This document shows positions 4,881 to 49,027 of a stretch of 64,000 nucleotides of DNA, piece by piece. The stretch covers positions 26,583 through 90,582 of the forward strand of contig MFAE01000005.1 in assembly GCA_001774495.1 (NCBI GenBank), written 5' to 3'. This DNA comes from Candidatus Campbellbacteria bacterium RIFOXYC2_FULL_35_25. GTDB taxonomy: Bacteria; Patescibacteriota; Minisyncoccia; Phycocordibacterales; UBA12079. Position 1 is the first letter of the stretch. The number at the start of each line of letters is the position of its first letter. The translations under genes and the position numbers were made by a program. Below the pieces are notes generated by a model. It worked only from the letters and a program-made list of their open reading frames with translations, did not search any database and was not told the DNA's origin.

Positions 4881-5000
4881 ATCCGCCCGACGAGAATTCC
4901 CGCTCTCGCTTGGCGGGTTTTCTCATTTTTGGTCAACCCAAAAAAAAAGAAACCCGCTTTGCGTAAACGCAAAGCGGGAGTTCTAGGTAATAAGGACGGC

Positions 5001-5279
5001 TCATCCCGAAGTCAATCCTGTTGCGTCGTAAAGATTCTGAAGGCTTTTTTGGGTTTCTCTCCCGACGACACCGTCAGCCTGCAAATCCGGAGAGGCAAAA
5101 CCCATACCAATGAGTGCATACTGGAAAAGGATTTTACTGTTGCGATGAGGCACATTGTAACGATAGTGCAAGAATATCTCCGCCACAGTGGCCTTGTTGG
5201 GAAGATGCCCCGCTCCTATGCACAAAATTCTCCAACGCTTCTTGATTTCTTCTTGGGACAACTGCTTTTTCTCACACAT
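5001..5279 (-). CDS. hypothetical protein with peptidoglycan-binding-like (PG_binding_1-type) motif DLQADGVVGRETQKSLQNLY
   Basis: 92-aa ORF in GC-rich islet; TGA stop; own hairpin+U-run terminator 4939-4978; overlapping + strand ORF 4929..5306 judged spurious. Confidence 0.4.
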   Translation of the reverse strand: MCEKKQLSQEEIKKRWRILCIGAGHLPNKATVAEIFLHYRYNVPHRNSKILFQYALIGMGFASPDLQADGVVGRETQKSLQNLYDATGLTSG

Positions 5280-6094: not shown

Positions 6095-6166
6095 GGCCCT
6101 ATCGTCTAACGGTTAGGACATCGCCTTCTCAAGGCGGAAATTCGGGTTCGATTCCCGGTAGGGTCA
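6095..6166 (+). tRNA. tRNA-Glu (anticodon CUC)
   Basis: GGCCCTA acceptor pairs with TAGGGTC (one G-U); Glu-type short D arm TCGTCTAACGGTTAGGACA; anticodon stem TCGCC/GGCGG, loop TTCTCAA (U33, A37); T-loop TTCGATT; close to E. coli tRNA-Glu. Confidence 0.85.
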
Positions 6167-6217
6167 CACCAAAAGTAAATCCGCCTGAATAAGGCAGATT
6201 TACTTTTGGTGTGACCC
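6161..6217. repeat. 57-bp inverted repeat (25-bp arms) that embeds the tRNA-Glu 3' end; likely terminator/processing hairpin
   Basis: gggtcacaccaaaagtaaatccgcc / ggcagatttacttttggtgtgaccc, one G-U-compatible mismatch. Confidence 0.8.
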
Positions 6218-6267
6218 TAAGAAAGCAAACTTCTTTGCTTTCGTCAGGAATCGAACGGCGGAGTATG

Positions 6268-9247: not shown

Positions 9248-9345
9248 ACGTTTAATTATATATTAATTAGTAAGTGGGTGGTAGGAATAAATTAAAAAAG
9301 GTTTTAACTAAAAACTATCAACTATAAACTATAAACTAAACAAAT

Positions 9346-23053: not shown

Positions 23054-23364
23054 AAAAAAGTTTTCAACATTTTTAACTTATCAAAAAATAGTGTAGTATT
23101 CGCTGATGTTCCCAGAAAATAAAAACCGTAATATAAAAAATGAATATGATATCCTCTTAATTTTTATGTTAATGGGAACAGTAATCACCGGTGTTTTTTT
23201 ATTTAAAGTGTCATCTTTTGTTGCGGTAAAAAGCTTTGATTTATTGATGTTAGCAACGGTCAGTAGTTTTTAATTTTTTTATAGAGTAAAATATAAATAT
23301 CTTTTAAAAAAATATTTTATAAATTAATTCTATAAACTATCAACTATAGACTACAAACTTAAAT

Positions 23365-23817
23365 ATGTTACAACAACAAATCAGAGAACAATTAACAGAA
23401 TCAATGAAAGCTCGAAACGAAGTGAGGACATTGGTCTTAAAAAGTCTTTTATCTGCTTTCACAAACGAATTAGTGGCTCAAAGAAAAAAACCCTCCGAGG
23501 CATTGTCTGATGGAGATGTTCTTAATGTTATTAAAAAAGCCGTTAAACAAAGAAAAGATTCAGTTGAACAGTTCTCGAAAGGAGGCCGAGAAGATTTGGT
23601 GCAGAAAGAACAAGCTGAATTAGAAATTTTAAGCGCCTACGTTCCAGAAACAATGAACAAAGAAGAAATTTTGAAAATTGCTCAAGCAAAAAAGGACCAG
23701 CTTGGAATTGAAGATAAATCAAAAATGGGAATATTAATGGGAGCGTTGATGAAAGAATTGGGGGGAAAGGCTGATGGCGGGGATGTAAAAGAGGTTGTTG
23801 ATGGATTGTTTGAATAA
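23365..23817 (+). CDS. GatB/YqeY domain protein
   Basis: 150 aa, YqeY-family N- and C-terminal helices; G-less CTATAAACTATCAACTATAGACTA leader. Confidence 0.85.
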   Translation: MLQQQIREQLTESMKARNEVRTLVLKSLLSAFTNELVAQRKKPSEALSDGDVLNVIKKAVKQRKDSVEQFSKGGREDLVQKEQAELEILSAYVPETMNKEEILKIAQAKKDQLGIEDKSKMGILMGALMKELGGKADGGDVKEVVDGLFE

Positions 23818-25040: not shown

Positions 25041-25104
25041 CCCTCGACACAGCAAAAGAAAAAAGACGAATAAATTCGTCTTTTTTCTTTTGCTGTGTCG
25101 AGGG
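25041..25104. repeat. 64-bp perfect palindrome (30-bp arms, loop taaa) whose right arm continues into the partial tRNA-Phe 3' copy
   Basis: ccctcgacacagcaaaagaaaaaagacgaa taaa ttcgtcttttttcttttgctgtgtcgaggg. Confidence 0.85.
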
Positions 25105-26007: not shown

Positions 26008-26091
26008 CATGTATAAGAAATTTAAAAAACAAAAAAATCCCCTCTAGGGATTTTTTTGTTTTACTATAATCTATAAACTATCTACTACCAA

Positions 26092-26325
26092 CTATTTCAA
26101 CAATTCTTCAATTCCATTTTTATCAAAACCAAAAACAACTGTTCCATCAATAACAATAACAGGAACTCCCATTTGCCCATCTGTTAGTTTTAACAATTCT
26201 TCTCTCTTTTCTTCACTTCCTGATACATCAATTTCTTCAAACTCAACTCCTTTTTCTCTAAAAAAATCTTTGGCCATTAAACAATAAGTACAAGTTGGTG
26301 TTGAATAAATAATTACTTTTTTCAT
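26092..26325 (-). CDS. glutaredoxin-like protein (CxxC thioredoxin fold)
   Basis: 77 aa, MKKVIIYSTPTCTYCLMAK..., cis-Pro VPVIVIDG. Confidence 0.85.
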   Translation of the reverse strand: MKKVIIYSTPTCTYCLMAKDFFREKGVEFEEIDVSGSEEKREELLKLTDGQMGVPVIVIDGTVVFGFDKNGIEELLK

Positions 26326-26745: not shown

Positions 26746-26809
26746 ATAGATGAATTTTTAATTTCAAATTTCAATTCATTACTACAAACTACTCACTACT
26801 CACTACCAA

Positions 26810-27187
26810 CTAATCAAACCATCCTAAAAACTTGCTCCAAATTCCATCACCTTTACCATCATCTTCTTTTTGCTTGGTGTCTTTGGGATCAATTATCAAA
26901 ACCATTTTTTCTCCACTTTTTGCCACACCAAATTTGCTTCTTATCTCTCCCTCCTCTCCTTCTTTCGTTTTCAAAATTTCAATTTCAGACGATAGATTCT
27001 CTCCTCTTTCTTTTAACTCTTCTAATTCCCGTTGAGCAAGCTCTTTATTAATTCTTGTAATTTTTGATTCCCTGTAAGCGGTCCAAACTCCTTTTAAAAT
27101 AAAAAGGGTCACCAAGGCAAGCAAAAAAATAGTAACCTTTGAATAAATAATTCTTCTGACTACTTGTTTTTCTTCAAAATCAAACAT
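26810..27187 (-). CDS. FtsB/DivIC-like septum formation initiator
   Basis: 125 aa, N-terminal TM, coiled coil, IRSKFGVAKSGEKMVLI matching FtsB C-terminal motif. Confidence 0.6.
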   Translation of the reverse strand: MFDFEEKQVVRRIIYSKVTIFLLALVTLFILKGVWTAYRESKITRINKELAQRELEELKERGENLSSEIEILKTKEGEEGEIRSKFGVAKSGEKMVLIIDPKDTKQKEDDGKGDGIWSKFLGWFD

Positions 27188-28254: not shown

Positions 28255-28293
28255 TAAAAAGGTTTAGCAACAGTTGTTGCTAAACCTTTTTTT
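28255..28293. terminator. hairpin ggtttagcaacagttgttgctaaacc + T-run
   Basis: between convergent 27999..28223 and leuS. Confidence 0.7.
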
Positions 28294-28326
28294 ACTTACT
28301 ACTTGATACTTGCTACTTATTACTTA

Positions 28327-30777
28327 CTACTCATTACTCTCTACCACAATGTTTAAAATTCTATTTTTGACGTAAATGATCTTTTTGGGTTCTTTTCCTT
28401 CAAGCCATTTTTTTATCAATTCGCTTGCAAGAGCTTTCTTGCTAACATCCTCTTCCTCAGTTCCCTCTTCTATTTCTATAGTCTCTCTAACTTTTCCATT
28501 TACCTGAACGGCTATTTTGTGGATACTGTCTTTAGACAAGCTCTCATCAAATTTTGGCCAACTTTCATCTTGAATCAAACTTTCATTTCCCAACTGGTGC
28601 CAAAGCTCTTGTGTAATATGCGGAGCAAAAGGAGAAAGTATTGTTAAAAATGTTTGATAATCTTCTTTTGAGATACTTGATTTTTTTACTGTGTTTATAA
28701 ATTTCATCATATCAGAAACAGCAGTATTATAAGCCAACTCATCTATACCTTTCGTCATTCTTTTAATTGTCTTATGCAATTCCCTAACAACATCTTCAGA
28801 ACTTTTTTCTTTTAGTTCATCTTTGGTAAACCAAACTTTTTCCAAAAATCTATAAACTCCCACTATATTATCTTCATTCCACATTACCTCGTCTTCCAAT
28901 GGTGCAGCAAAAAGCATATAAGTCCTTACGGAATCAGCCCCAAAACTTTTAACCATATCATCTGGATTAACCACATTACCCTTTGATTTGCTCATTTTCT
29001 TGCCCTGCGCGTCCAAAACCATCCCTTGGTGCCTTAGCTTCAAAAACGGCTCATCAAAGTCTAGAAGGCCTATTTTGTTCATCGCTTTTGTGAAAAAACG
29101 AGCAAATAATAAGTGCATATAAGTATGTTCGGCCCCACCAATATACAAATCAACCGGCAACCATTTCTTACGAATTTCTGAACAAAACTCAGAATCATTT
29201 AGAGCATCTGGATATCTTAAAAAGTACCAAGAAGAATCAACAAAAGTGTCCATGGTGTCATATTCGGGAGTCCAACCTTTTCCAAAAATTTTTTCAGTTC
29301 TTTCTTTAAATTCTTTTGAAGCCCCTAATGGAGAAACTCCCTTTGGTTTAAAATCAACATCGATGGGAAGAATCCAAGGAAGATGCTCTTCAGGAACCAA
29401 GGTCGCCTTACCCTCGGGAGAATAAACGATCGGAATCGGACAACCCCAATATCTCTGTCGAGAAATTGACCAATCTCTTAAACGATAATTGGTTGTCATT
29501 TCCCCACCAACAAATTCTGTAATTTTCTTCTTAGCTTCTTCGGAGTTCATTCCATTGAATTGTCCTGATTCCATAAGTAACCCAAAACCTATCGTTGCAA
29601 AACCAGACTCACGAGCACTTTTTATTTTTAATTCTGCTAATCCTGGAATAATTTCGTCAACAGATTTAACCTCAGCTATAACTGGCTTAATTTCAATATC
29701 TTTTTGTAATGCAAACTGAAGGTCTCTATCATCATGAGCCGGCACCGCCATAATCGCACCAGTTCCATAGTTAACCAACACATAATCAGCAATGAAAACT
29801 GGTATTTCTTCGCTGTTAGCTGGATTAATAGCCGAAATTCCCTCAAGCTTCACCCCTGTCTTCTCTTTACCCTCTATTCTCTCCATTTCTGTCTTATTTT
29901 GAGCTTTAATCCCGTACTCCTCAACCTCGTCCCAGTTTGTAATTTGGTCCTTCAATTCGGAAACAAGCGAATGTTCTGGGGCAAGCACCATATAAGTAGC
30001 ACCAAACAAAGTGTCAGGACGAGTAGTAAATACCTCTATTTCGTTCGCTGTTAGCTGTGATCTGTGAGCTGTCAGCTTAAACTTAATCTTTGCTCCTTCA
30101 CTCTTCCCTATCCAATTTCTCTGATTTTTTTTAGTATGTTCTGGCCAATCAACTTTGTCTAAGTCATTAATTAAATCATCGGCGAAATCTGTAATCTTGA
30201 AAAACCACCCTGGTATTTTTTTCTGTTCAATTTGGGTTCCGCATCTTTCACACTCACCATTAAGAACTTGTTCGTTCGCAATTACAGTCTGGCAAGAAGA
30301 ACACCAATTTGCTTTTTGTGTACTTTGATAAACTAAATCATTTTTATAAAATTGTTGAAAAATCCATTGAGTCCATTTGTAGTATTTTGGATCAGAGGTT
30401 ACTGCCTGTTCATCAAAATCATAATTAAGACCCAACATCTTCATTTGTTTAATATAATTGCTGATATTTTTTTCAGTAGTTTGGGCGGGGTGAACTCCTG
30501 TTTTTATTGCAAAGTTTTCAGCCGGCAAACCAAAGGCGTCAAACCCTTGAGGGTGCAAAACATTAAATCCCTGCATCTTTTTGAAACGGTAATATACATC
30601 ACTCGCGGTATAACTTTCAGTATGTCCCATATGAAGACCATCACCGGACGGATAAGGAAACATATCAAGCATGTAAAACTTATTTTTAGTATCGTCTTTG
30701 TCTATTTTAGAAACCTTATTTTCCTCCCAAATCTTTTGCCATTTCCCCTCAATATCATTGTGATTGTATTTTTCCAT
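28327..30777 (-). CDS. leuS: leucyl-tRNA synthetase
   Basis: 816 aa, HMGH and KMSKS motifs, editing (CP1) domain. Confidence 0.95.
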   Translation of the reverse strand: MEKYNHNDIEGKWQKIWEENKVSKIDKDDTKNKFYMLDMFPYPSGDGLHMGHTESYTASDVYYRFKKMQGFNVLHPQGFDAFGLPAENFAIKTGVHPAQTTEKNISNYIKQMKMLGLNYDFDEQAVTSDPKYYKWTQWIFQQFYKNDLVYQSTQKANWCSSCQTVIANEQVLNGECERCGTQIEQKKIPGWFFKITDFADDLINDLDKVDWPEHTKKNQRNWIGKSEGAKIKFKLTAHRSQLTANEIEVFTTRPDTLFGATYMVLAPEHSLVSELKDQITNWDEVEEYGIKAQNKTEMERIEGKEKTGVKLEGISAINPANSEEIPVFIADYVLVNYGTGAIMAVPAHDDRDLQFALQKDIEIKPVIAEVKSVDEIIPGLAELKIKSARESGFATIGFGLLMESGQFNGMNSEEAKKKITEFVGGEMTTNYRLRDWSISRQRYWGCPIPIVYSPEGKATLVPEEHLPWILPIDVDFKPKGVSPLGASKEFKERTEKIFGKGWTPEYDTMDTFVDSSWYFLRYPDALNDSEFCSEIRKKWLPVDLYIGGAEHTYMHLLFARFFTKAMNKIGLLDFDEPFLKLRHQGMVLDAQGKKMSKSKGNVVNPDDMVKSFGADSVRTYMLFAAPLEDEVMWNEDNIVGVYRFLEKVWFTKDELKEKSSEDVVRELHKTIKRMTKGIDELAYNTAVSDMMKFINTVKKSSISKEDYQTFLTILSPFAPHITQELWHQLGNESLIQDESWPKFDESLSKDSIHKIAVQVNGKVRETIEIEEGTEEEDVSKKALASELIKKWLEGKEPKKIIYVKNRILNIVVESNE

Positions 30778-30812
30778 ATCTAAATATATTACAACAAAAA
30801 CATGAAAAACAA

Positions 30813-30852
30813 ACTATACTAAAATTTACGCGACCGCGTAAATTTTAGTATA
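30813..30852. repeat. 40-bp sequence, copy 1 (38-bp perfect palindrome with 18-bp arms; extended to 23-bp arms 30810-30857); identical to 31529-31568
   Basis: actatactaaaatttacgcgaccgcgtaaattttagtata; 75 bp downstream of stop of 30928..31482. Confidence 0.9.
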
Positions 30853-30927
30853 GTTTGTTTTTTCCTTCATTTTATTACTTCTCTTTATTATTTCCCTTTA
30901 TTATTTATTTTTCTTTATTATAAATAA

Positions 30928-31482
30928 CTACTTAGTTAAACCAAAAACTTCTTTTAACCACTCTTCGTTTTCTATTCTATTTACTTCCATATACAAAACA
31001 TCTTCATCAGCAAAAAAATTTGTTTTAAGTAGAAAAATAAGCTCTTCACACTCATAAGGAAGAACCCATACACTATTTTGTAATTTAATAAACCCTAATC
31101 TATCTAAATTATGACGAAGTAATTCTCGAAGTCTCTTTTTTTTCTCTGGAATATCAAAAATAATAACTCTCCATTTTTTATCCCAATTCTTTGGCTTTTC
31201 TATTTCTATTTCTTCTAATTCATATTGGGAAATCATTTCCCTACCCTTTTTTGTAAGTTCTATAAATTCAACACTGCCTTTTTTTACTTTTTTTATTAAA
31301 CCTTTCTTTAATAGTGTTTTTACAGAATTATTCATATAATATTTTTCTTTCGACCAACCCTTCTTTTTTGGTAAAAACATTTTTAAAGATTGCAAAGCAT
31401 TTGGAGCTAAAACAGCCATACCAACCAAGCCGGTAATCGCTATTGTGGATAAAATTATTTTTTGATAATTTATATTTTTCAT
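30928..31482 (-). CDS. membrane-anchored wHTH + Cas2/VapD/PaaX_C-like (ferredoxin-fold) domain protein; orphan, no cas1 or CRISPR array
   Basis: N-terminal TM; LKKGLIKKVKKGSVEFIELTKKGREM wHTH-like; WRVIIFDIPEKKKRLRELLRHNLDRLGFIKLQNSVWVLP resembles Cas2 core (RVLVFFDLP...GF.MLQ.SV). Confidence 0.6.
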   Translation of the reverse strand: MKNINYQKIILSTIAITGLVGMAVLAPNALQSLKMFLPKKKGWSKEKYYMNNSVKTLLKKGLIKKVKKGSVEFIELTKKGREMISQYELEEIEIEKPKNWDKKWRVIIFDIPEKKKRLRELLRHNLDRLGFIKLQNSVWVLPYECEELIFLLKTNFFADEDVLYMEVNRIENEEWLKEVFGLTK

Positions 31483-31528
31483 TTTTTATTATCTTTTATA
31501 TAAAAATATTATATATTTATATAATATC

Positions 31529-31568
31529 ACTATACTAAAATTTACGCGACCGCGTAAATTTTAGTATA
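31529..31568. promoter_or_regulatory. 40-bp sequence, copy 2 (identical palindrome), 46 bp upstream of start codon of 30928..31482: candidate operator
   Basis: perfect identity with 30813-30852; position in promoter region; AT-rich promoter between it and ATG. Confidence 0.5.
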
Positions 31569-31610
31569 TCTTGATAAGTAAGATCGAGATTGTTAAGCAT
31601 CAAAAAAACA

Positions 31611-31633
31611 AAAACCGCCAAAGGCGGTTTTTG
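31611..31633. terminator. hairpin aaaaaccgcc aaa ggcggttttt
   Basis: downstream of 31695..32249 stop, preceded on minus strand by stop-rich TAGTAGCGAGTATTAAGTAATAAGTAG. Confidence 0.7.
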
Positions 31634-31694
31634 TTTACTTTCTACTTATTACTTAATACTCGCTACTAGAAATTTAAATAAAAATTTTCAATTT

Positions 31695-32249: not shown

Positions 32250-32343
32250 ATTATTTATATTATTGAGATTAATAAAAATTCTAATAATAAACTAGAAATT
32301 GAATAGAGAATCATGAATTAAGAATTCTGAATCATGATTCTTT

Positions 32344-32410
32344 ATTCGTGATTCGTGATTCGTGATTCGTGATTCGTGATTCGTGATTCGTGATTCGTGA
32401 TTCGTGATTC
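32344..32410. repeat. heptanucleotide tandem repeat (ATTCGTG) x 9.5, perfect
   Basis: attcgtg units 32344-32406 plus attc; intergenic between SPFH stop (32432) and start of 31695..32249. Confidence 0.95.
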
Positions 32411-33208: not shown

Positions 33209-33372
33209 GGTTAATTTAGTTTATAGTCTATAGTTTTTAGTCTATAGAAAAATATAGTATTAATAATATAATTATAACACAGTCTAGTTTTTAGTTGATA
33301 GTTGATAGTTTTTAGGAAAAAGAAAAAGCCCGTCCCGGAAAAAATTTCATGAGTCTCTCAATTCCTTGCTTT

Positions 33373-33438
33373 TTTTAAAAGAAATTTTTCTGACAAAAAT
33401 GACGACCGTCATTTTTATCAGAAAAATTTCTTTTAAAA
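33373..33438. repeat. 66-bp near-perfect AT-rich palindrome (32-bp arms, 1 mismatch, centre gacg ac cgtc)
   Basis: tttaaaagaaatttttctgacaaaaatgacg / cgtcatttttatcagaaaaatttcttttaaaa. Confidence 0.85.
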
Positions 33439-33485
33439 AACCATGGTGATCTATCCTAACCAATTTAAATATTTTACGAGAAAAA

Positions 33486-33953
33486 AGCCCGTCCCGGAAA
33501 CCGGGGCGGGCTACAAAACAACAAAAAGATAGCTCGGGATCGCTGGGTGGCGGTTTGAAAATTTCATTGACCGTCGCCTTCAGGGCGGTTTTTTACGTCG
33601 CAGGCGTCTCTTTTTGGTGTTTTTCTATTTGGAAACCTCCCCATATAAACAGAGAAGCTCCACCCATAAGAGCAAAACAAATATAGAAAAAAAGCAGGGC
33701 AAAATGATGAAAGAAAAAATCATTTAACCAATTTCGATAAAAATCATTTAACAGAAGAATATTAAGATCTGAAAAAAACAATACTGATACCATCAAGAAA
33801 AAACCAATGGCCACAGAGCAATAAGCAATAGACTTCATAGCACTCCTCCTTTCTTTTTTATACTTTTTTATGAAAGACAAAAAATTCTAACCATAGACTA
33901 ACAACATAGACGAGGGTTGTCAATCATTTTGGCTTCTTTTACAATTATTTAGA
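33486..33953. repeat. 468-bp direct repeat, copy A (apparently 100% identical to 34461-34928); contains gene 33593..33880 and GC hairpin AGCCCGTCCCGGAAACCGGGGCGGGCT
   Basis: base-by-base comparison of the two stretches; identical 95-aa translations. Confidence 0.9.
33593..33880 (-). CDS. hypothetical small membrane protein (2-3 TM), copy A
   Basis: 95 aa; identical to 34568..34855. Confidence 0.5.
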   Translation of the reverse strand: MSFIKKYKKERRSAMKSIAYCSVAIGFFLMVSVLFFSDLNILLLNDFYRNWLNDFFFHHFALLFFYICFALMGGASLFIWGGFQIEKHQKETPAT

Positions 33954-34085
33954 AATTAAGAATTTAAAATTAATTTGATTTTAAAATTGGATGCGGAACG
34001 AAGGTTTGAGGTAGTTATTTGGAAAAAGAAAAAGCCCGTCCCGGATAACCGGAACGGGCTGCAAAACAACATTTGGTGTTTTTGT

Positions 34086-34292
34086 TTATAAAAAAAGTTT
34101 TTCACCAAAAGCGTTAATCCCTTTGCCGTCAGGGTAATGAACCCTTTTACATACCGGGCACGCCGGCATATCCTCAAATTGAGGATTTGAACATCACCCC
34201 CCTCCAGAGACCATCATACTTTTTGAAGGAGAATCTTGATCTATTGCCTCCCCACAGTCAGTACATGGAAATTGAAAAGTATCTTGTCCCAC
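34086..34292 (-). pseudogene. small zinc-ribbon ORF (CTDCG...CPVCK) with strong SD (AAGGAGG-6nt-GTG) interrupted by in-frame TGA at 34194-34196 next to a G6 tract
   Basis: translation MGQDTFQFPCTDCGEAIDQDSPSKSMMVSGGG*CSNPQFEDMPACPVCKRVHYPDGKGINAFGEKLFL*; upstream TTGACA promoter-like. Confidence 0.35.
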
Positions 34293-34460
34293 TCTTACCT
34301 CCTTATAATGGCTCTGGTTTTTTGTACCGGGTTAAATAATCTATCGTTAGATTAACAGATCAGATTATATTGTCAACAAAAAATTAATTTGATTTTAAAA
34401 TTGGATGCAGAACGAGGAGTTGAGGTAGTTTTTAGTTGATAGTTTTTAGGAAAAAGAAAA

Positions 34461-34928
34461 AGCCCGTCCCGGAAACCGGGGCGGGCTACAAAACAACAAA
34501 AAGATAGCTCGGGATCGCTGGGTGGCGGTTTGAAAATTTCATTGACCGTCGCCTTCAGGGCGGTTTTTTACGTCGCAGGCGTCTCTTTTTGGTGTTTTTC
34601 TATTTGGAAACCTCCCCATATAAACAGAGAAGCTCCACCCATAAGAGCAAAACAAATATAGAAAAAAAGCAGGGCAAAATGATGAAAGAAAAAATCATTT
34701 AACCAATTTCGATAAAAATCATTTAACAGAAGAATATTAAGATCTGAAAAAAACAATACTGATACCATCAAGAAAAAACCAATGGCCACAGAGCAATAAG
34801 CAATAGACTTCATAGCACTCCTCCTTTCTTTTTTATACTTTTTTATGAAAGACAAAAAATTCTAACCATAGACTAACAACATAGACGAGGGTTGTCAATC
34901 ATTTTGGCTTCTTTTACAATTATTTAGG
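34461..34928. repeat. 468-bp direct repeat, copy B
   Basis: identical to 33486-33953. Confidence 0.9.
34568..34855 (-). CDS. hypothetical small membrane protein, copy B (identical to 33593..33880)
   Basis: 95 aa identical protein. Confidence 0.5.
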   Translation of the reverse strand: MSFIKKYKKERRSAMKSIAYCSVAIGFFLMVSVLFFSDLNILLLNDFYRNWLNDFFFHHFALLFFYICFALMGGASLFIWGGFQIEKHQKETPAT

Positions 34929-35083
34929 CCGAAATACCCAGCCATAGCAATCAGCGGGAAACATGGGTACAGAACTTTTTTCAGTTTCCTAAACCGTGTC
35001 GGCCCAGGAGGATGAGTCAGCCCCCAAATTGATCCCACAAAACCGACAAGAAAAACAATAACGCATGCTGATTTAATATCCAT
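34895..35083 (-). CDS. hypothetical small protein (weak)
   Basis: 62-aa ORF whose 3' end overlaps the duplicated segment. Confidence 0.25.
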   Translation of the reverse strand: MDIKSACVIVFLVGFVGSIWGLTHPPGPTRFRKLKKVLYPCFPLIAMAGYFGLNNCKRSQND

Positions 35084-35293
35084 ACCTTCTCCTTTTTCGC
35101 CACTATGTTAAAAAGCTTCCCAAAATTCTTGTTCTATAATAACGTCTATTTTACTAATTGTCAATACTTGTATTAAGTTAATTTCAAAATTAAATGCAGA
35201 ACGAGGAGTAAGAGTAAAATTTTGTGAGACGTATTTTCAATACGGTGAACAAAATTTTGCGAATTACGACAAAGCTCTGCGCCAATTTTGGAA

Positions 35294-40004: not shown

Positions 40005-40252
40005 AGGTTTAGTCGTTAGTTATTAGTTTATAGTTTTTAGAAAATTTTTAAAAACAAAAACTTATTTGCAATTAATTTATAATTAATAAAATAATAACAC
40101 AGGAGGATAGAAAATAAAAATAAAAAACACTTCTAGTTTTTTTCATACTTAAATTTATATAGGCATGAAAAAAACCGCCGAAGCGATTTCTTTCATAGTA
40201 CCTATTAAGTAGCAAGCTAAATAATAAGTACTTTAATTAGTATACTAAAGTG

Positions 40253-40342
40253 AGAAAAAAAAGCAAGCTTCTTGTTGATAACTCAAATTTAATTTACAGA
40301 GTCTTAGTCTCTGTAAATTAAATTTGAGTTATCAACAAGAAG
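40253..40342 (-). terminator. exceptionally long perfect hairpin (34-bp arms, 7-nt loop) followed on minus strand by U9: probable murJ terminator
   Basis: cttcttgttgataactcaaatttaatttacagag tcttagt ctctgtaaattaaatttgagttatcaacaagaag; A-run 40253-40262 on plus. Confidence 0.65.
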
Positions 40343-40456
40343 TAATAAGTAGTAAGTAGTGAGTATTAAGTTTCTGGATTGCTTCAGGCTTCGCCTTCGC
40401 AAAGACAAAAATCGTTTGCTATAAGCTATCGGCTATTAGCTATTAGCTTTCTAATA

Positions 40457-45726: not shown

Positions 45727-45845
45727 AGAAAATTTTTACGAAAATTTTAGTATTAAGTAATAAGTAGTAAGTATTAAGTATAAATGAAAAAGTTAAAAGT
45801 TGAAAGTTTATAATTTCTAGCGAGGACGAAAGGGAGGTATAGTCC

Positions 45846-46289: not shown

Positions 46290-46594
46290 GGTTCTGAATT
46301 GCTTCGAAATTACTCCCCGAGGCCTCACCTCTCCCGTCGTTTCGCTTCGCTCCACTTCTCCTCGAGGACTTAAAATTTTTTAGGAAAAGTTTTAAGCAAC
46401 GACGGGCCTCCGTCCGTAATTTCTCGCAAAGACGACGAAAGGCAGAGCCTTTCGTCGTCTTTTAAAAATTAATTTATTAAAAATTTTTAAACCCCCACCC
46501 CTTTCTTTTCCAAAACAAAGGTGTGGGGGTTTAAAAATTAAAAATTAAAAATTTCAGATGTTTTTTCTACTCACTACTCACTACCAACTACTCA

Positions 46595-47527
46595 CTATTC
46601 CTGTGCAACTTTTTCTATACTAGCAGAAACTAATTTTCCCACGTCTTTGAAACGGCCTTCTCGGGAAGAACCTAAAACAGAAACAATGATAGGATGACCT
46701 ATGCCAATATCAAAAGCGATAACTAAATTTCCTCCAGCCAAATCTGTAAAGCCGGTTTTAGAAGCAATTATTCCGGGGATGGCTTCCGCGTATTGATTGG
46801 TATTGTAAACAGTATGAGTAAAATCTTTTGATTTTATTTCCAAACTCGAATATTTTGTAGCCTCAAGAATCTGCGGTTTCTCTTTTATGATCTGCCCCAT
46901 TAGCATAGCCACATCTTTTGCCGAACCATAGGCCCCACCAACATCCTGACTTACATCTAACCCAGATTCGTTTAAAAAATAAGTTTGGATTAATCCTAAA
47001 TTTTGAGCTTTTTGGTTCATTTCTTTAATAAACATTTCTTCCTGTGTTTGTCCCTCTCCTGTATTAATAGAACCTATGATAGAGGCAAGGGCGTGCGCTC
47101 CATCATTAGATGAAGATACTAAAGTAAAGTCCAAAACATCAGCGAGTCTCCATTTTTCACCCATCAAGAAACCACTATCCCCTTCTTCGTTGATGTCCTG
47201 ACTGTCTATGGTAACAATGATTCCTTCTGGAACTAATTCTGAAACAACTAGTGCTGTCATTAACTTTGTTAAAGATGCCAAAGGTAACTGAGCTTCCCCA
47301 TTCATTGAATAAATTATTTTATTTTCGTAAGTGTCCCAAACGAAAGCTGATTTTGCTTCCAAAACCAAGTCTTCAAATGGATCTATTTTTTCTTCCGCAA
47401 TATTGACCTCTGATTCAATTATTATTTCTTCTTTTTTACTTAAAAAATAAAAAAGAAAAACGCCCACCAAAACGACAGTGGTTGTTATTAGAACAATAAT
47501 TTTATTTTTATTTTTTGCGAAATTCAC
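46595..47527 (-). CDS. D-alanyl-D-alanine carboxypeptidase (S11, PBP5-like)
   Basis: 310 aa, SLTK, SSN, KTGFT motifs, N-terminal TM. Confidence 0.8.
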   Translation of the reverse strand: MNFAKNKNKIIVLITTTVVLVGVFLFYFLSKKEEIIIESEVNIAEEKIDPFEDLVLEAKSAFVWDTYENKIIYSMNGEAQLPLASLTKLMTALVVSELVPEGIIVTIDSQDINEEGDSGFLMGEKWRLADVLDFTLVSSSNDGAHALASIIGSINTGEGQTQEEMFIKEMNQKAQNLGLIQTYFLNESGLDVSQDVGGAYGSAKDVAMLMGQIIKEKPQILEATKYSSLEIKSKDFTHTVYNTNQYAEAIPGIIASKTGFTDLAGGNLVIAFDIGIGHPIIVSVLGSSREGRFKDVGKLVSASIEKVAQE

Positions 47528-48109: not shown

Positions 48110-48217
48110 AATATTTTAGTCGATAGTTTATAGACTATAGTTTATAGTATAAAATTATATTATTAAAGTATAAATTATCTAAATTCTATAGACTATCAAC
48201 TAAAAACTATAGACTGT

Positions 48218-48967
48218 CTAATTATAACTTGGGACACTTACTTCTTGGTTTTCAATACTTATATCATCAAAATTAGTGGTTTGTTTAACCATAATAATTC
48301 CCTGTTTTACTAATTCCAACAACGCCAAAAAACTTATAACAACATTTACCTTCTCTGTTTTTCCTTTCTGAGAAAAATCATTGAAACTCATCTTTATGTT
48401 TTCCCGAACTCTTTTTGTAAGACTATCTATCATCTCCTCTAAACTAATAACAGTCTTTACGACTTTTTTAGGAACAATTTCTACTTTTGGAAGATTATTT
48501 AAAACATCCTTCATCAATAAAAAAATATTTTTTGTTGTAATCTTTTTATCGGGAGAAAAGATTGGCTCTATATTTCTAAACTCGGATTTTGCAAAAAAGA
48601 TTTCCTTTCCAAATTTATCATTTATATAAATACTCAACTCTTTTGTTCTTTTATAAATTTTTAATCTCTTTCCTAAATCATCAATACTATGTTCTTCTTC
48701 TAGGGTTAGGTTCAAAGTTGGCAAAAGAGATTTAGATTTTATCAACATTAAAATAGAAGCGACTAAAACAAAGTCTGCGGAATTTTTAATTTTTGACAAT
48801 GAAGAAAAACTAGTAAAATTTTGATCATTTCTAATATAAGCGATATAATCGTCTGTTATTTCAGCCAAAGAAACATCGTTTATATGAAGTTTTCTTTTTT
48901 CAATTAAATTTAAGAGTAGATCAAGAGGGCCTTCAAAAATCTCTGTTTTTACTTTGTAATCTTCCAT
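48218..48967 (-). CDS. scpA: segregation and condensation protein A (start at Met13 of ORF-track model)
   Basis: FEGPLDLLLNLIEKRKL..ITDDYIAYI ScpA N-terminal motif; leader ACTTGATACTTACTACTTTATACTTATTCAC before ATG. Confidence 0.85.
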   Translation of the reverse strand: MEDYKVKTEIFEGPLDLLLNLIEKRKLHINDVSLAEITDDYIAYIRNDQNFTSFSSLSKIKNSADFVLVASILMLIKSKSLLPTLNLTLEEEHSIDDLGKRLKIYKRTKELSIYINDKFGKEIFFAKSEFRNIEPIFSPDKKITTKNIFLLMKDVLNNLPKVEIVPKKVVKTVISLEEMIDSLTKRVRENIKMSFNDFSQKGKTEKVNVVISFLALLELVKQGIIMVKQTTNFDDISIENQEVSVPSYN

Positions 48968-49027
48968 GTGAATAAGTATAAAGTAGTAAGTATCAAGTAT
49001 CAAGTTTGAAACTTTTAATTAGTATTT

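Follow-up and report, generated by a model that had tools for sequence, protein, structure and literature searches.

A 64-kb stretch of the genome of Candidatus Campbellbacteria bacterium RIFOXYC2_FULL_35_25 (the window, in whose coordinates all positions are given) contains a gene for a short, 184-amino-acid (aa) PaaX-like protein that is flanked on both sides by identical copies of a palindromic 40-mer, ACTATACTAAAATTTACGCGACCGCGTAAATTTTAGTATA. We favour the reading, at a probability of roughly 55%, that this gene encodes a PaaX-type, probably membrane-anchored, dimeric DNA-binding protein which, together with its cognate sites, makes up a self-contained autoregulatory module. The family to which the protein belongs is known at the level of its domains, and the new finding is its link to paired palindromes; our literature search found no description of this family or of its paired, paralogue-specific palindromes with a conserved centre. 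The parts of the gene, the two sites and the boundaries of the module are placed as follows.

30928..31482, minus strand: gene for the 184-aa short PaaX-like protein, an open reading frame (ORF) with a hydrophobic N-terminus, a winged helix and a PaaX_M Cas2-like domain
31390..31458, minus strand: hydrophobic segment with an invariant APN motif, the probable N-terminal membrane anchor (residues 9-31, from hydropathy)
31210..31356, minus strand: recognition-type helix, beta-hairpin wing and next helix of the winged helix (residues 43-91, from the AlphaFold model, weak Pfam matches and Foldseek)
30979..31191, minus strand: PaaX_M domain, Cas2-like and ferredoxin-type (residues 98-168, from Pfam, Foldseek and conservation)
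31529..31568, no strand: upstream copy of the 40-mer and proposed operator, with a palindrome at 31531-31568 that has 18-bp arms and the centre CGACCG
30805..30862, no strand: downstream copy, in which the 40-mer at 30813-30852 is extended to perfect 28-bp arms with A5/T5 flanks
31606..31636, minus strand: canonical intrinsic terminator of the preceding gene, the upstream boundary of the module
30778..30794, minus strand: conserved leuS leader TTGTAATATATTTAGAT, the downstream boundary, lying outside the module; the same leader is found in the related loci L108 and L109

Exact occurrences of the 40-mer are found at 30813-30852 and 31529-31568, and shuffled versions of the window contained none. 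Both copies are perfect palindromes of the form 18+2+18. In the orientation of the gene, the upstream copy ends 46 nt before the ATG (31482) and the downstream copy starts 75 nt past the stop codon, its palindrome lying 35 nt upstream of the ATG of leuS (30777). The ORF, the two identical 40-mers with their perfect 18-bp arms and both distances had been listed in an initial annotation of this DNA, and all of them were borne out, with the gene placed on the minus strand.

The C-terminal half of the protein matches Pfam PF20803 ("PaaX protein central Cas2-like domain", or PaaX_M) over residues 98-168 with E=1.8e-19 and 70 bits against a cut-off of 24. The NCBIfam model of the PaaX family (TIGR02277, equivalent to COG3327) aligns residues 50-149 to its positions 37-133 with a score of 42.8, where the cut-off is 264.55, and this alignment begins, at profile position 37, with the recognition helix and wing. 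The 184-aa protein gave no Pfam match to PF07848, the N-terminal winged helix of PaaX, with weak Pfam matches only to winged helix-turn-helix (wHTH) domains, and none to the C-terminal effector-binding helical domain PaaX_C (PF08223); it stops at residue 184, about 16 residues past PaaX_M. An AlphaFold (AF2) model made from 49 homologues, with a predicted local distance difference test score (pLDDT) of 82.5, contains three helices (6-17, 22-36 and 43-59) followed by a beta-hairpin wing, one more helix (78-91) and a domain built in the order beta-alpha-beta-beta-alpha-beta. In Foldseek its top match was E. coli PaaX, 8a39 (184 columns, E=2e-5), followed by the PaaX-like structures 3l09 and 3kfw, while the N-terminal half alone matched the winged helices of AspA, PadR and F93 and the C-terminal half alone matched Cas2 and VapD structures. 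Searches of the PDB at the sequence level, with the single sequence or with a family profile, returned weak matches only (E of at least 0.05); the link to PaaX rests on Pfam and on the fold search. The protein appears to have the PaaX architecture minus its C-terminal effector domain and is not an undescribed fold. The Cas2-like fold of the C-terminal half and the wHTH-like segment had both been recognised in the initial annotation, the former now supported by PaaX_M and by the PaaX, Cas2 and VapD structures and the latter by Pfam, AF2 and Foldseek; its statement that this is not a described family does not hold at the level of domains, and the Pfam domain in question is PF20803 rather than PF08223.

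An N-terminal transmembrane (TM) helix had also been proposed, and TM-like hydropathy was found in all 117 full-length homologues. The Kyte-Doolittle mean over 19 residues is 2.13 at residues 9-27 of the window protein; among the 117 homologues its maximum is at least 1.62 (median 2.2), and the remainder of the protein does not exceed 1.53. The uncharged run at the N-terminus has a median length of 25 aa in these homologues, with a net charge of +2.6 before it and +4.0 after it. Hydropathy and charge together are probably the signature of a membrane anchor with a cytoplasmic DNA-binding part. By contrast, the AF2 model renders residues 9-31 as two short helices (6-17 and 22-36), packed as helices 1 and 2 of the winged helix. 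Most of the invariant residues fall in the Cas2-like domain (W100, K103, W104, F109, D110, E113, R119, R123, Q135, N136, S137, P142, Y143 and C145); D110, invariant in 49 sequences, lies at the end of strand 1 in the stretch that aligns with the start of Cas2 profiles. Conservation is lowest in the winged helix (majority fraction 0.48) and highest in the Cas2-like domain (0.68) and the tail (0.71).

The gene had been called an orphan, and this description does not hold, as it belongs to a large, multi-paralogue family of the Patescibacteria. A word-indexed search yielded 659 relatives, of which all named ones are Patescibacteria and most full-length members are 180-200 aa long. An exhaustive search with a profile through 1.84 billion cluster representatives matched 5522 clusters, defined at 50% identity, with E<=1e-3; of these, 2851 reached E<=1e-10 and 597 reached E<=1e-30, and the best 150 matches were nearly all full-length, at 180-200 aa. 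Every listed homologue with a precomputed Pfam assignment carries PF20803. Some metagenome-assembled genomes (MAGs) hold six or more paralogues, which are 50-70% identical within a genome. One database protein of 135 aa (P0007) comes from a locus (L100) in which a 134-bp "insertion" at 4913-5037 appears to split the family gene; this is a scaffolding artefact made up of an N run and foreign sequence. The loci of the family sit among housekeeping genes, and genes for aminoacyl-tRNA synthetases (leuS, aspS, alaS, trpS, valS/ileS) appear unusually frequent as immediate neighbours of its modules, as in L012, L015, L031, L041, L064, L066 and L085 and at 28327-30777 of the window, which may only reflect the housekeeping-rich genomes of the Candidate Phyla Radiation (CPR).

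The association of gene and palindromes is a property of the family. When 80 family loci were fetched from metagenomes, about half had a long palindrome on both sides of the gene by strict criteria, and most of the remainder had a shared 12-20-mer containing ACGGTCG or ACGATCG. The palindromes are 36-50 bp long, with arms specific to the locus and a conserved R-CG-RY-CG-Y centre, which reads CGACCG/CGGTCG in 72 of 83 copies and CGATCG in the other 11, and never CGGCCG. The two copies at one locus share their arms, while each locus has arms of its own, which holds even for paralogues that lie on the same contig. Three or four copies occur at some loci. Palindromes centred on CGRYCG number 97 in 33.6 kb beside family genes and 6 in 335 kb elsewhere at the same loci, an enrichment of about 160-fold. 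A 12-mer or longer word common to both 200-bp flanks was present at 49 of 59 distinct family genes and at 1 of 92 controls matched for size and distance.

The core AATTTACGCGNNCGCGTAAATT was also scanned for in the genomes of 185,579 species, which gave 14 loci. In the related complete 753-kb genome CP011215 it occurs only twice, on either side of a homologue with 73% identity, and the outer part of the arms there differs from that of the window and is still perfectly self-complementary. At 4 of the 14 loci a family member stands beside the palindrome, among them a member from Saccharibacteria (L003) that is 37.5% identical over the residues aligned by tblastn (13-147). At the other 10 loci the 20-base core belongs to long palindromes of other lineages, and the stretches fetched there contain no family gene; some of these are probably chance matches among palindromic intergenic elements. 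A genome-wide repeat was rejected as an explanation: only 3 of the 13 CGRYCG sites in the window are palindrome centres, and both occurrences in CP011215 are at the homologous gene.

Solo palindromes of the same class also exist. One of them lies in the window itself:

33371..33440, no strand: solo palindrome of 70 bp with 34-bp arms and the centre TGACGACCGTCA, its arms unlike those of the 40-mer

This palindrome has no family gene nearby and is kept in all strain contigs that cover the site. The MAG JAQTWD01 has three solo sites that carry the exact arm of one of its resident modules. Solo sites lie 100-430 bp from the next start. Long near-perfect palindromes that do not have a CGRYCG centre occur in the window as well, at 25041-25104 (31-bp arms, among tRNA genes), 40268-40342 (37-bp arms) and 6159-6219 (28-bp arms).

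Comparison of related genomes shows that palindrome, gene and palindrome are either all there or all missing. Relatives share the gene order YchF, Band_7, small membrane protein and LeuS, and the family gene lies between the small membrane protein and LeuS both in the window and in L107, where the family protein is 70% identical. The palindrome pair of L107 is ATACCAAAATATTTG-CGGTCG-CAAATATTTTGGTAT, so that all four half-sites have changed together relative to the window, and the distance from the downstream centre to the leuS ATG is 55 nt in L107 and 56 nt in the window. In L108 and L109, whose LeuS proteins are 71-72% identical, the same slot has neither gene nor palindrome, and a terminator equivalent to that at 31606-31636 is followed directly by the leuS leader TTGTARTATATTTAGATATG, also given as TTGTAGTATATTTAGAT, which matches the leader of the window. 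Because L108 and L109 retain this leader without gene or palindrome, the palindromes belong to the family gene and not to leuS. Two further contigs from other samples, L104 (ERZ5996431) and L105 (JGI 3300009031), are without exactly the 716-bp unit: the upstream flank is joined to the leuS leader through one hybrid palindrome, of which the downstream copy forms the right half. They differ from the window by a few single-nucleotide polymorphisms (SNPs) and L105 has a different gene upstream of Band_7, which marks them as distinguishable variants. The gene-less allele of these contigs could also have arisen by an assembler skipping the loop at the 40-bp repeat, and several other strain contigs break at the upstream palindrome. 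The earlier description of gene plus palindromes as self-contained thus agrees with their co-occurrence across the family, their joint change and their joint presence or absence.

The symmetry of the sites is not uniform along the arms. Counting from the base next to the central hexamer as position 1, the share of unpaired bases starts at 0.01 for position 1, rises to 0.14-0.25 over positions 2-6, falls back to 0.01-0.08 over positions 7-14 and is near random beyond position 16. This profile suggests two 8-bp half-sites with centres about 27 bp apart plus a central octamer, R-CG-RY-CG-Y, and not a uniform stem. The arms carry little family-wide information. In L001 and L017, which have near-identical winged helices, the outer arm AATTACRAAATTT is common to both and the inner arm is different.

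The upstream copies also hold a characteristic position. Their centres lie a median of 49 nt from the ATG, 12 of 39 falling within 45-50 nt, whereas downstream copies are spread from 19 to 165 nt. Hexamers resembling a -10 box, found 20-40 nt downstream of the centres, number 42 for upstream copies versus 8 for downstream copies, and they often lie 5-15 nt before the ATG. This places the upstream palindrome on the -35 region of a short-leader promoter or immediately ahead of that region, and outside the gene's own 5' untranslated region. As a general role for the downstream palindrome, that of a leuS operator was rejected: the leader is kept without a palindrome in L108 and L109, and most downstream copies are off promoter distance.

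The model that we propose for the module starts from PaaX, the repressor of phenylacetate catabolism in E. coli and Pseudomonas (8a39, 3l09, 3kfw; PF07848 + PF20803 + PF08223), in which a winged helix, to which that of the present protein probably corresponds, is followed by PaaX_M, and which is the best match by both sequence family and fold. The PaaX of E. coli binds TGATTC-N27-GAATCA, a 39-bp site, and acts on its own promoter as a steric repressor; its middle region has been described as a dimerisation motif (PMC9493321). By analogy, in site length, in the spacing of the half-sites and in position at the protein's own promoter, the two 40-mers would be the cognate binding sites of the product of the gene between them. 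The Cas2-like domain would serve as the dimerisation motif, as in PaaX, in a protein that has no effector domain. A dimer could place its two variable winged helices on the arms about 10-17 bp either side of the dyad, while its conserved part would lie opposite the invariant R-CG-RY-CG-Y centre, in a manner analogous to PaaX on its two hexamers. A protein bound at the upstream site would then repress its own gene by steric hindrance, the mechanism that PaaX uses at its promoter Px. There are also differences from PaaX. PaaX has about 300 aa as opposed to 184, and with PaaX_C missing no response to phenylacetyl-CoA is expected; the TM-like N-terminus replaces or overlaps helices 1 and 2 of the winged helix; the sites are palindromic through the spacer, with the R-CG-RY-CG-Y centre, and are duplicated on both sides of the gene; and there are several paralogues per genome, in Patescibacteria only. 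No paa genes were found in the window, and the neighbours of the PaaX-like gene are housekeeping genes.

The downstream site could act as a second operator, whether by forming a roadblock or an insulator on the side of leuS or by taking part in a loop. In the lac O1/O2, gal OE/OI and deo systems, one repressor has a site at the promoter and another hundreds of bp downstream of it, with looping of the DNA between them. The likeness is in the paired sites; here, however, the entire gene comes before the second site, both sites have the same 40 bp and have evolved together, and the PaaX-like protein is not known to form tetramers. As the two sites are long identical repeats, the gene should be prone to precise deletion, and recombination between them would delete it and leave a solo palindrome.

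Several observations count against this model. The promoter scan in the window was not above chance, with 7 found against 7.7 expected. Across 1431 protein pairs, identity in the winged helix correlated with identity in the half-site at a rho of only about 0.07, no better than for the Cas2-like domain, although the registers of the arms have probably been shifted by insertions and deletions. If residues 9-31 are inserted in the membrane, the winged helix is left without its first two helices. The palindromes are longer and more perfect than the footprint of a dimer requires, and at 29 of the 53 positions that differ between the copies of one locus the differences are compensated so that both palindromes remain perfectly paired, which suggests that self-complementarity is either selected for or maintained by a templated process. 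The palindrome often continues, in sequence specific to the site, past the core that is shared between copies, and these extensions, together with the compensation, could reflect selection for a hairpin or cruciform or else templated correction of quasi-palindromes during replication, which is a known mutational process. For most downstream copies the next gene does not begin at promoter distance, and in 9 of 38 cases the downstream neighbour is convergent; because downstream and solo copies are mostly off promoter distance, a simple role as operator of a target gene fails for the second copy.

Patescibacteria (CPR) have tiny genomes with few recognisable regulators, and almost nothing is known of their gene control. 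If the members of this family are site-specific binders, their sites can be read from the flanks of their genes, which would provide ready-made pairs of protein and site for dozens of paralogues. Prediction of regulons in uncultured CPR bacteria would then be directly testable, and the family would constitute a natural library for the evolution of winged-helix specificity.

The strongest of the alternatives, which we nevertheless consider unlikely, is that of a selfish or DNA-processing cassette, a one-gene element whose protein nicks, cuts or pairs its own palindromes at the CGRYCG centre by means of the Cas2-like domain. Gain, loss, inversion or copying of the unit would thereby be promoted, with solo palindromes as its footprints. 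Such an element would account for the whole unit being present in the window and L107 when L108 and L109 have neither gene nor palindromes in that slot, for the single hybrid palindrome of L104 and L105, and for the three solo sites in one MAG whose arms are exactly those of a resident module. Promoter geometry is mostly lacking at solo and downstream copies, and the Cas2-like domain is among the most conserved parts of the protein, with an invariant D110 that aligns with the end of Cas2 strand 1, and with E113, R119, R123 and Q135-S137. The orientation of the central dinucleotide (AC or GT) is random between copies, as flip-flop recombination predicts. On the other hand, nothing points to recent transposition, given that paralogues within a genome share 50-70% identity and carry different arms, and the modules of the window and L107 are orthologous and in the same slot, which argues for vertical inheritance. 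No target-site duplication was seen at the window junctions when these were compared with L108, and deletion between 40-bp direct repeats needs no dedicated enzyme. Searches of the protein against Pfam, NCBIfam, PADLOC and PHROGs detected no recombinase or transposase domain, and we know of no catalytic activity of PaaX_M. An association with phages or other mobile elements was rejected, as no relatives were found on viral contigs, PHROGs gave no matches and PADLOC gave partial Cas2 matches only.

A small gene flanked by hairpin-capable palindromic repeats, with extra solo copies, is also known from the REP/RAYT transposase system and from the hairpin ends of IS200/IS605. In the present family no HUH or Tyr motif or transposase domain was detected, each paralogue has its own sequence, and a palindrome type has 2-5 copies and not the hundreds of REP. 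We give still less credence to the wider proposal of a new Patescibacteria element in which a membrane-anchored winged-helix/Cas2-like protein recognises palindromes that are specific to each paralogue and acts on their CGRYCG centre by processing or pairing, thereby driving excision, inversion, copying or membrane tethering and leaving solo palindromes as footprints. Between the two possibilities offered by the initial annotation, an autoregulatory module or a one-gene cassette, the evidence leans towards the module. Were the unit a cassette after all, it would represent an undescribed class of small genetic element, and were it to process DNA, the Cas2-like fold would gain a site-specific role on DNA outside CRISPR.

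It is also conceivable, if improbable, that the protein is a non-transcriptional DNA tether, which would fix specific chromosomal loci to the membrane and so help to organise or segregate the chromosome of a very small cell. The sites would lie next to the gene since a protein that is inserted during its translation acts mainly in cis. A TM-like N-terminus in all family members, with more positive charge on the DNA-binding side, speaks for this explanation, and the sites flank the gene rather than the promoter only, with 3-4 copies at some loci. The closest winged-helix structural neighbours include the centromere-binding protein AspA, and several paralogues per genome each have distinct sites. 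A link to transcription is suggested instead by the regular position of the upstream copy relative to the -10-like boxes and the ATG, and no partition ATPase or other partner was seen nearby. Membrane insertion is predicted from hydropathy, and in the AF2 model the segment forms part of the winged helix. Should the prediction hold, the protein would resemble ToxR and CadC in having a DNA-binding domain tethered by a single hydrophobic segment, although the order is reversed here, with an N-terminal anchor, and with about 8 residues before the anchor there is no extracytoplasmic sensor.

That the palindromes are structural hairpins (terminators, stems that stabilise RNA, or DNA cruciforms) which insulate the gene and are not bound by its product seems to us very improbable. 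The downstream copy in the window does have the classic shape of a bidirectional terminator, with a T-run, and the compensated differences and the extensions beyond the shared core described above would suit this explanation. The T-run is absent at the upstream copy of the window, however, and in the family as a whole only 3 of 39 upstream copies and 3 of 44 downstream ones are followed by a T-run on the sense strand, so the earlier description of a bidirectional hairpin with U-runs stands for the downstream copy of the window but not for the family, where it fits 6 of 83 palindromes; terminators were rejected at that level. An RNA hairpin was likewise rejected, given that single-arm mismatches show no strand bias, with 24 that give G.U and 18 that give A.C on the sense strand. 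Pairing is looser at positions 2-6 than further out, the opposite of what the nucleus of a hairpin needs. The upstream copy lies upstream of the -10-like boxes, and the preceding gene has its own terminator. The 160-fold enrichment beside one family is a further argument against purely structural hairpins, and an Rfam search of the whole window found 4 tRNAs only, with no match at the palindromes.

A genuine orphaned Cas2, left over from a CRISPR adaptation module, can be given practically no credence: TIGR01573 scores 27.5, just over its cut-off of 24.5, on profile positions 3-43 of 96 and PADLOC Cas2 models match in part (E ~1e-6), alongside the Foldseek matches of the C-terminal half, but Cas2 profiles cover only some 40 residues (profile positions 2-43), Pfam Cas2 (PF09827, positions 2-36 of 74) stays below threshold at 21.1 versus 23.8 where PaaX_M reaches 70 bits, an extra winged helix and a hydrophobic N-terminus are present, and family members sit among housekeeping genes. 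Within the 64-kb window there is no CRISPR-like array, and neither cas1 nor any other cas gene was found among the 31 other ORFs of at least 150 aa, in agreement with the initial annotation. What Cas2 and VapD share with the protein is the ferredoxin-like fold of its C-terminal half, in which strand 1, helix 1 and strand 2 align over about 40 residues, including the Asp at the end of strand 1; the fused DNA-binding and hydrophobic segments and the far better score of PaaX_M set it apart.

Many members of the family are labelled "CRISPR-associated endonuclease Cas2" in public records, which can be traced to the score of TIGR01573 just above its cut-off on those 40 or so residues. This label is a systematic misannotation that inflates the apparent CRISPR content of Patescibacteria/CPR genomes, and the present analysis corrects it.

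The rest of the window is core chromosome. All identifiable ORFs among the 31 others of at least 150 aa are core housekeeping genes, and the genes present include those for DnaE, LysS-GreA, CysS, DnaB, RecR, LeuS, YchF, MurJ and ScpAB, together with LepA, a Mur ligase, a PBP, MraW and RNase R. The intergenic regions are rich in tandem repeats with a period of 7 nt (AACTATA, TACTTAC, AGTATTA and ATTCGTG, the last repeated 12.6 times), which often begin directly after stop codons, for example that of leuS, and similar heptads occur 3' of genes in L108 and L111. In the window they are found at these positions:

32324-32410; 9294-9341; 23330-23373; 26061-26097; 26779-26815; 28292-28353; 33217-33341: 7-nt tandem repeats
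40017-40066; 40337-40373; 45745-45795; 46564-46614; 48179-48229; 48971-49007: further 7-nt tandem repeats

Between Band_7 and YchF, at 33209-35293, about 2 kb are without a long ORF. This interval holds a duplicated block of at least 471 bp (33482-33952 = 34457-34927, at a spacing of 975 bp), each copy of which has an ORF for a TM-like protein of 95 aa and a GC-rich hairpin (AAGCCCGTCCCGG...). The interval varies among the strain contigs, and in L105 it is occupied by a nucleotidyltransferase (NTP_transf_2) gene.

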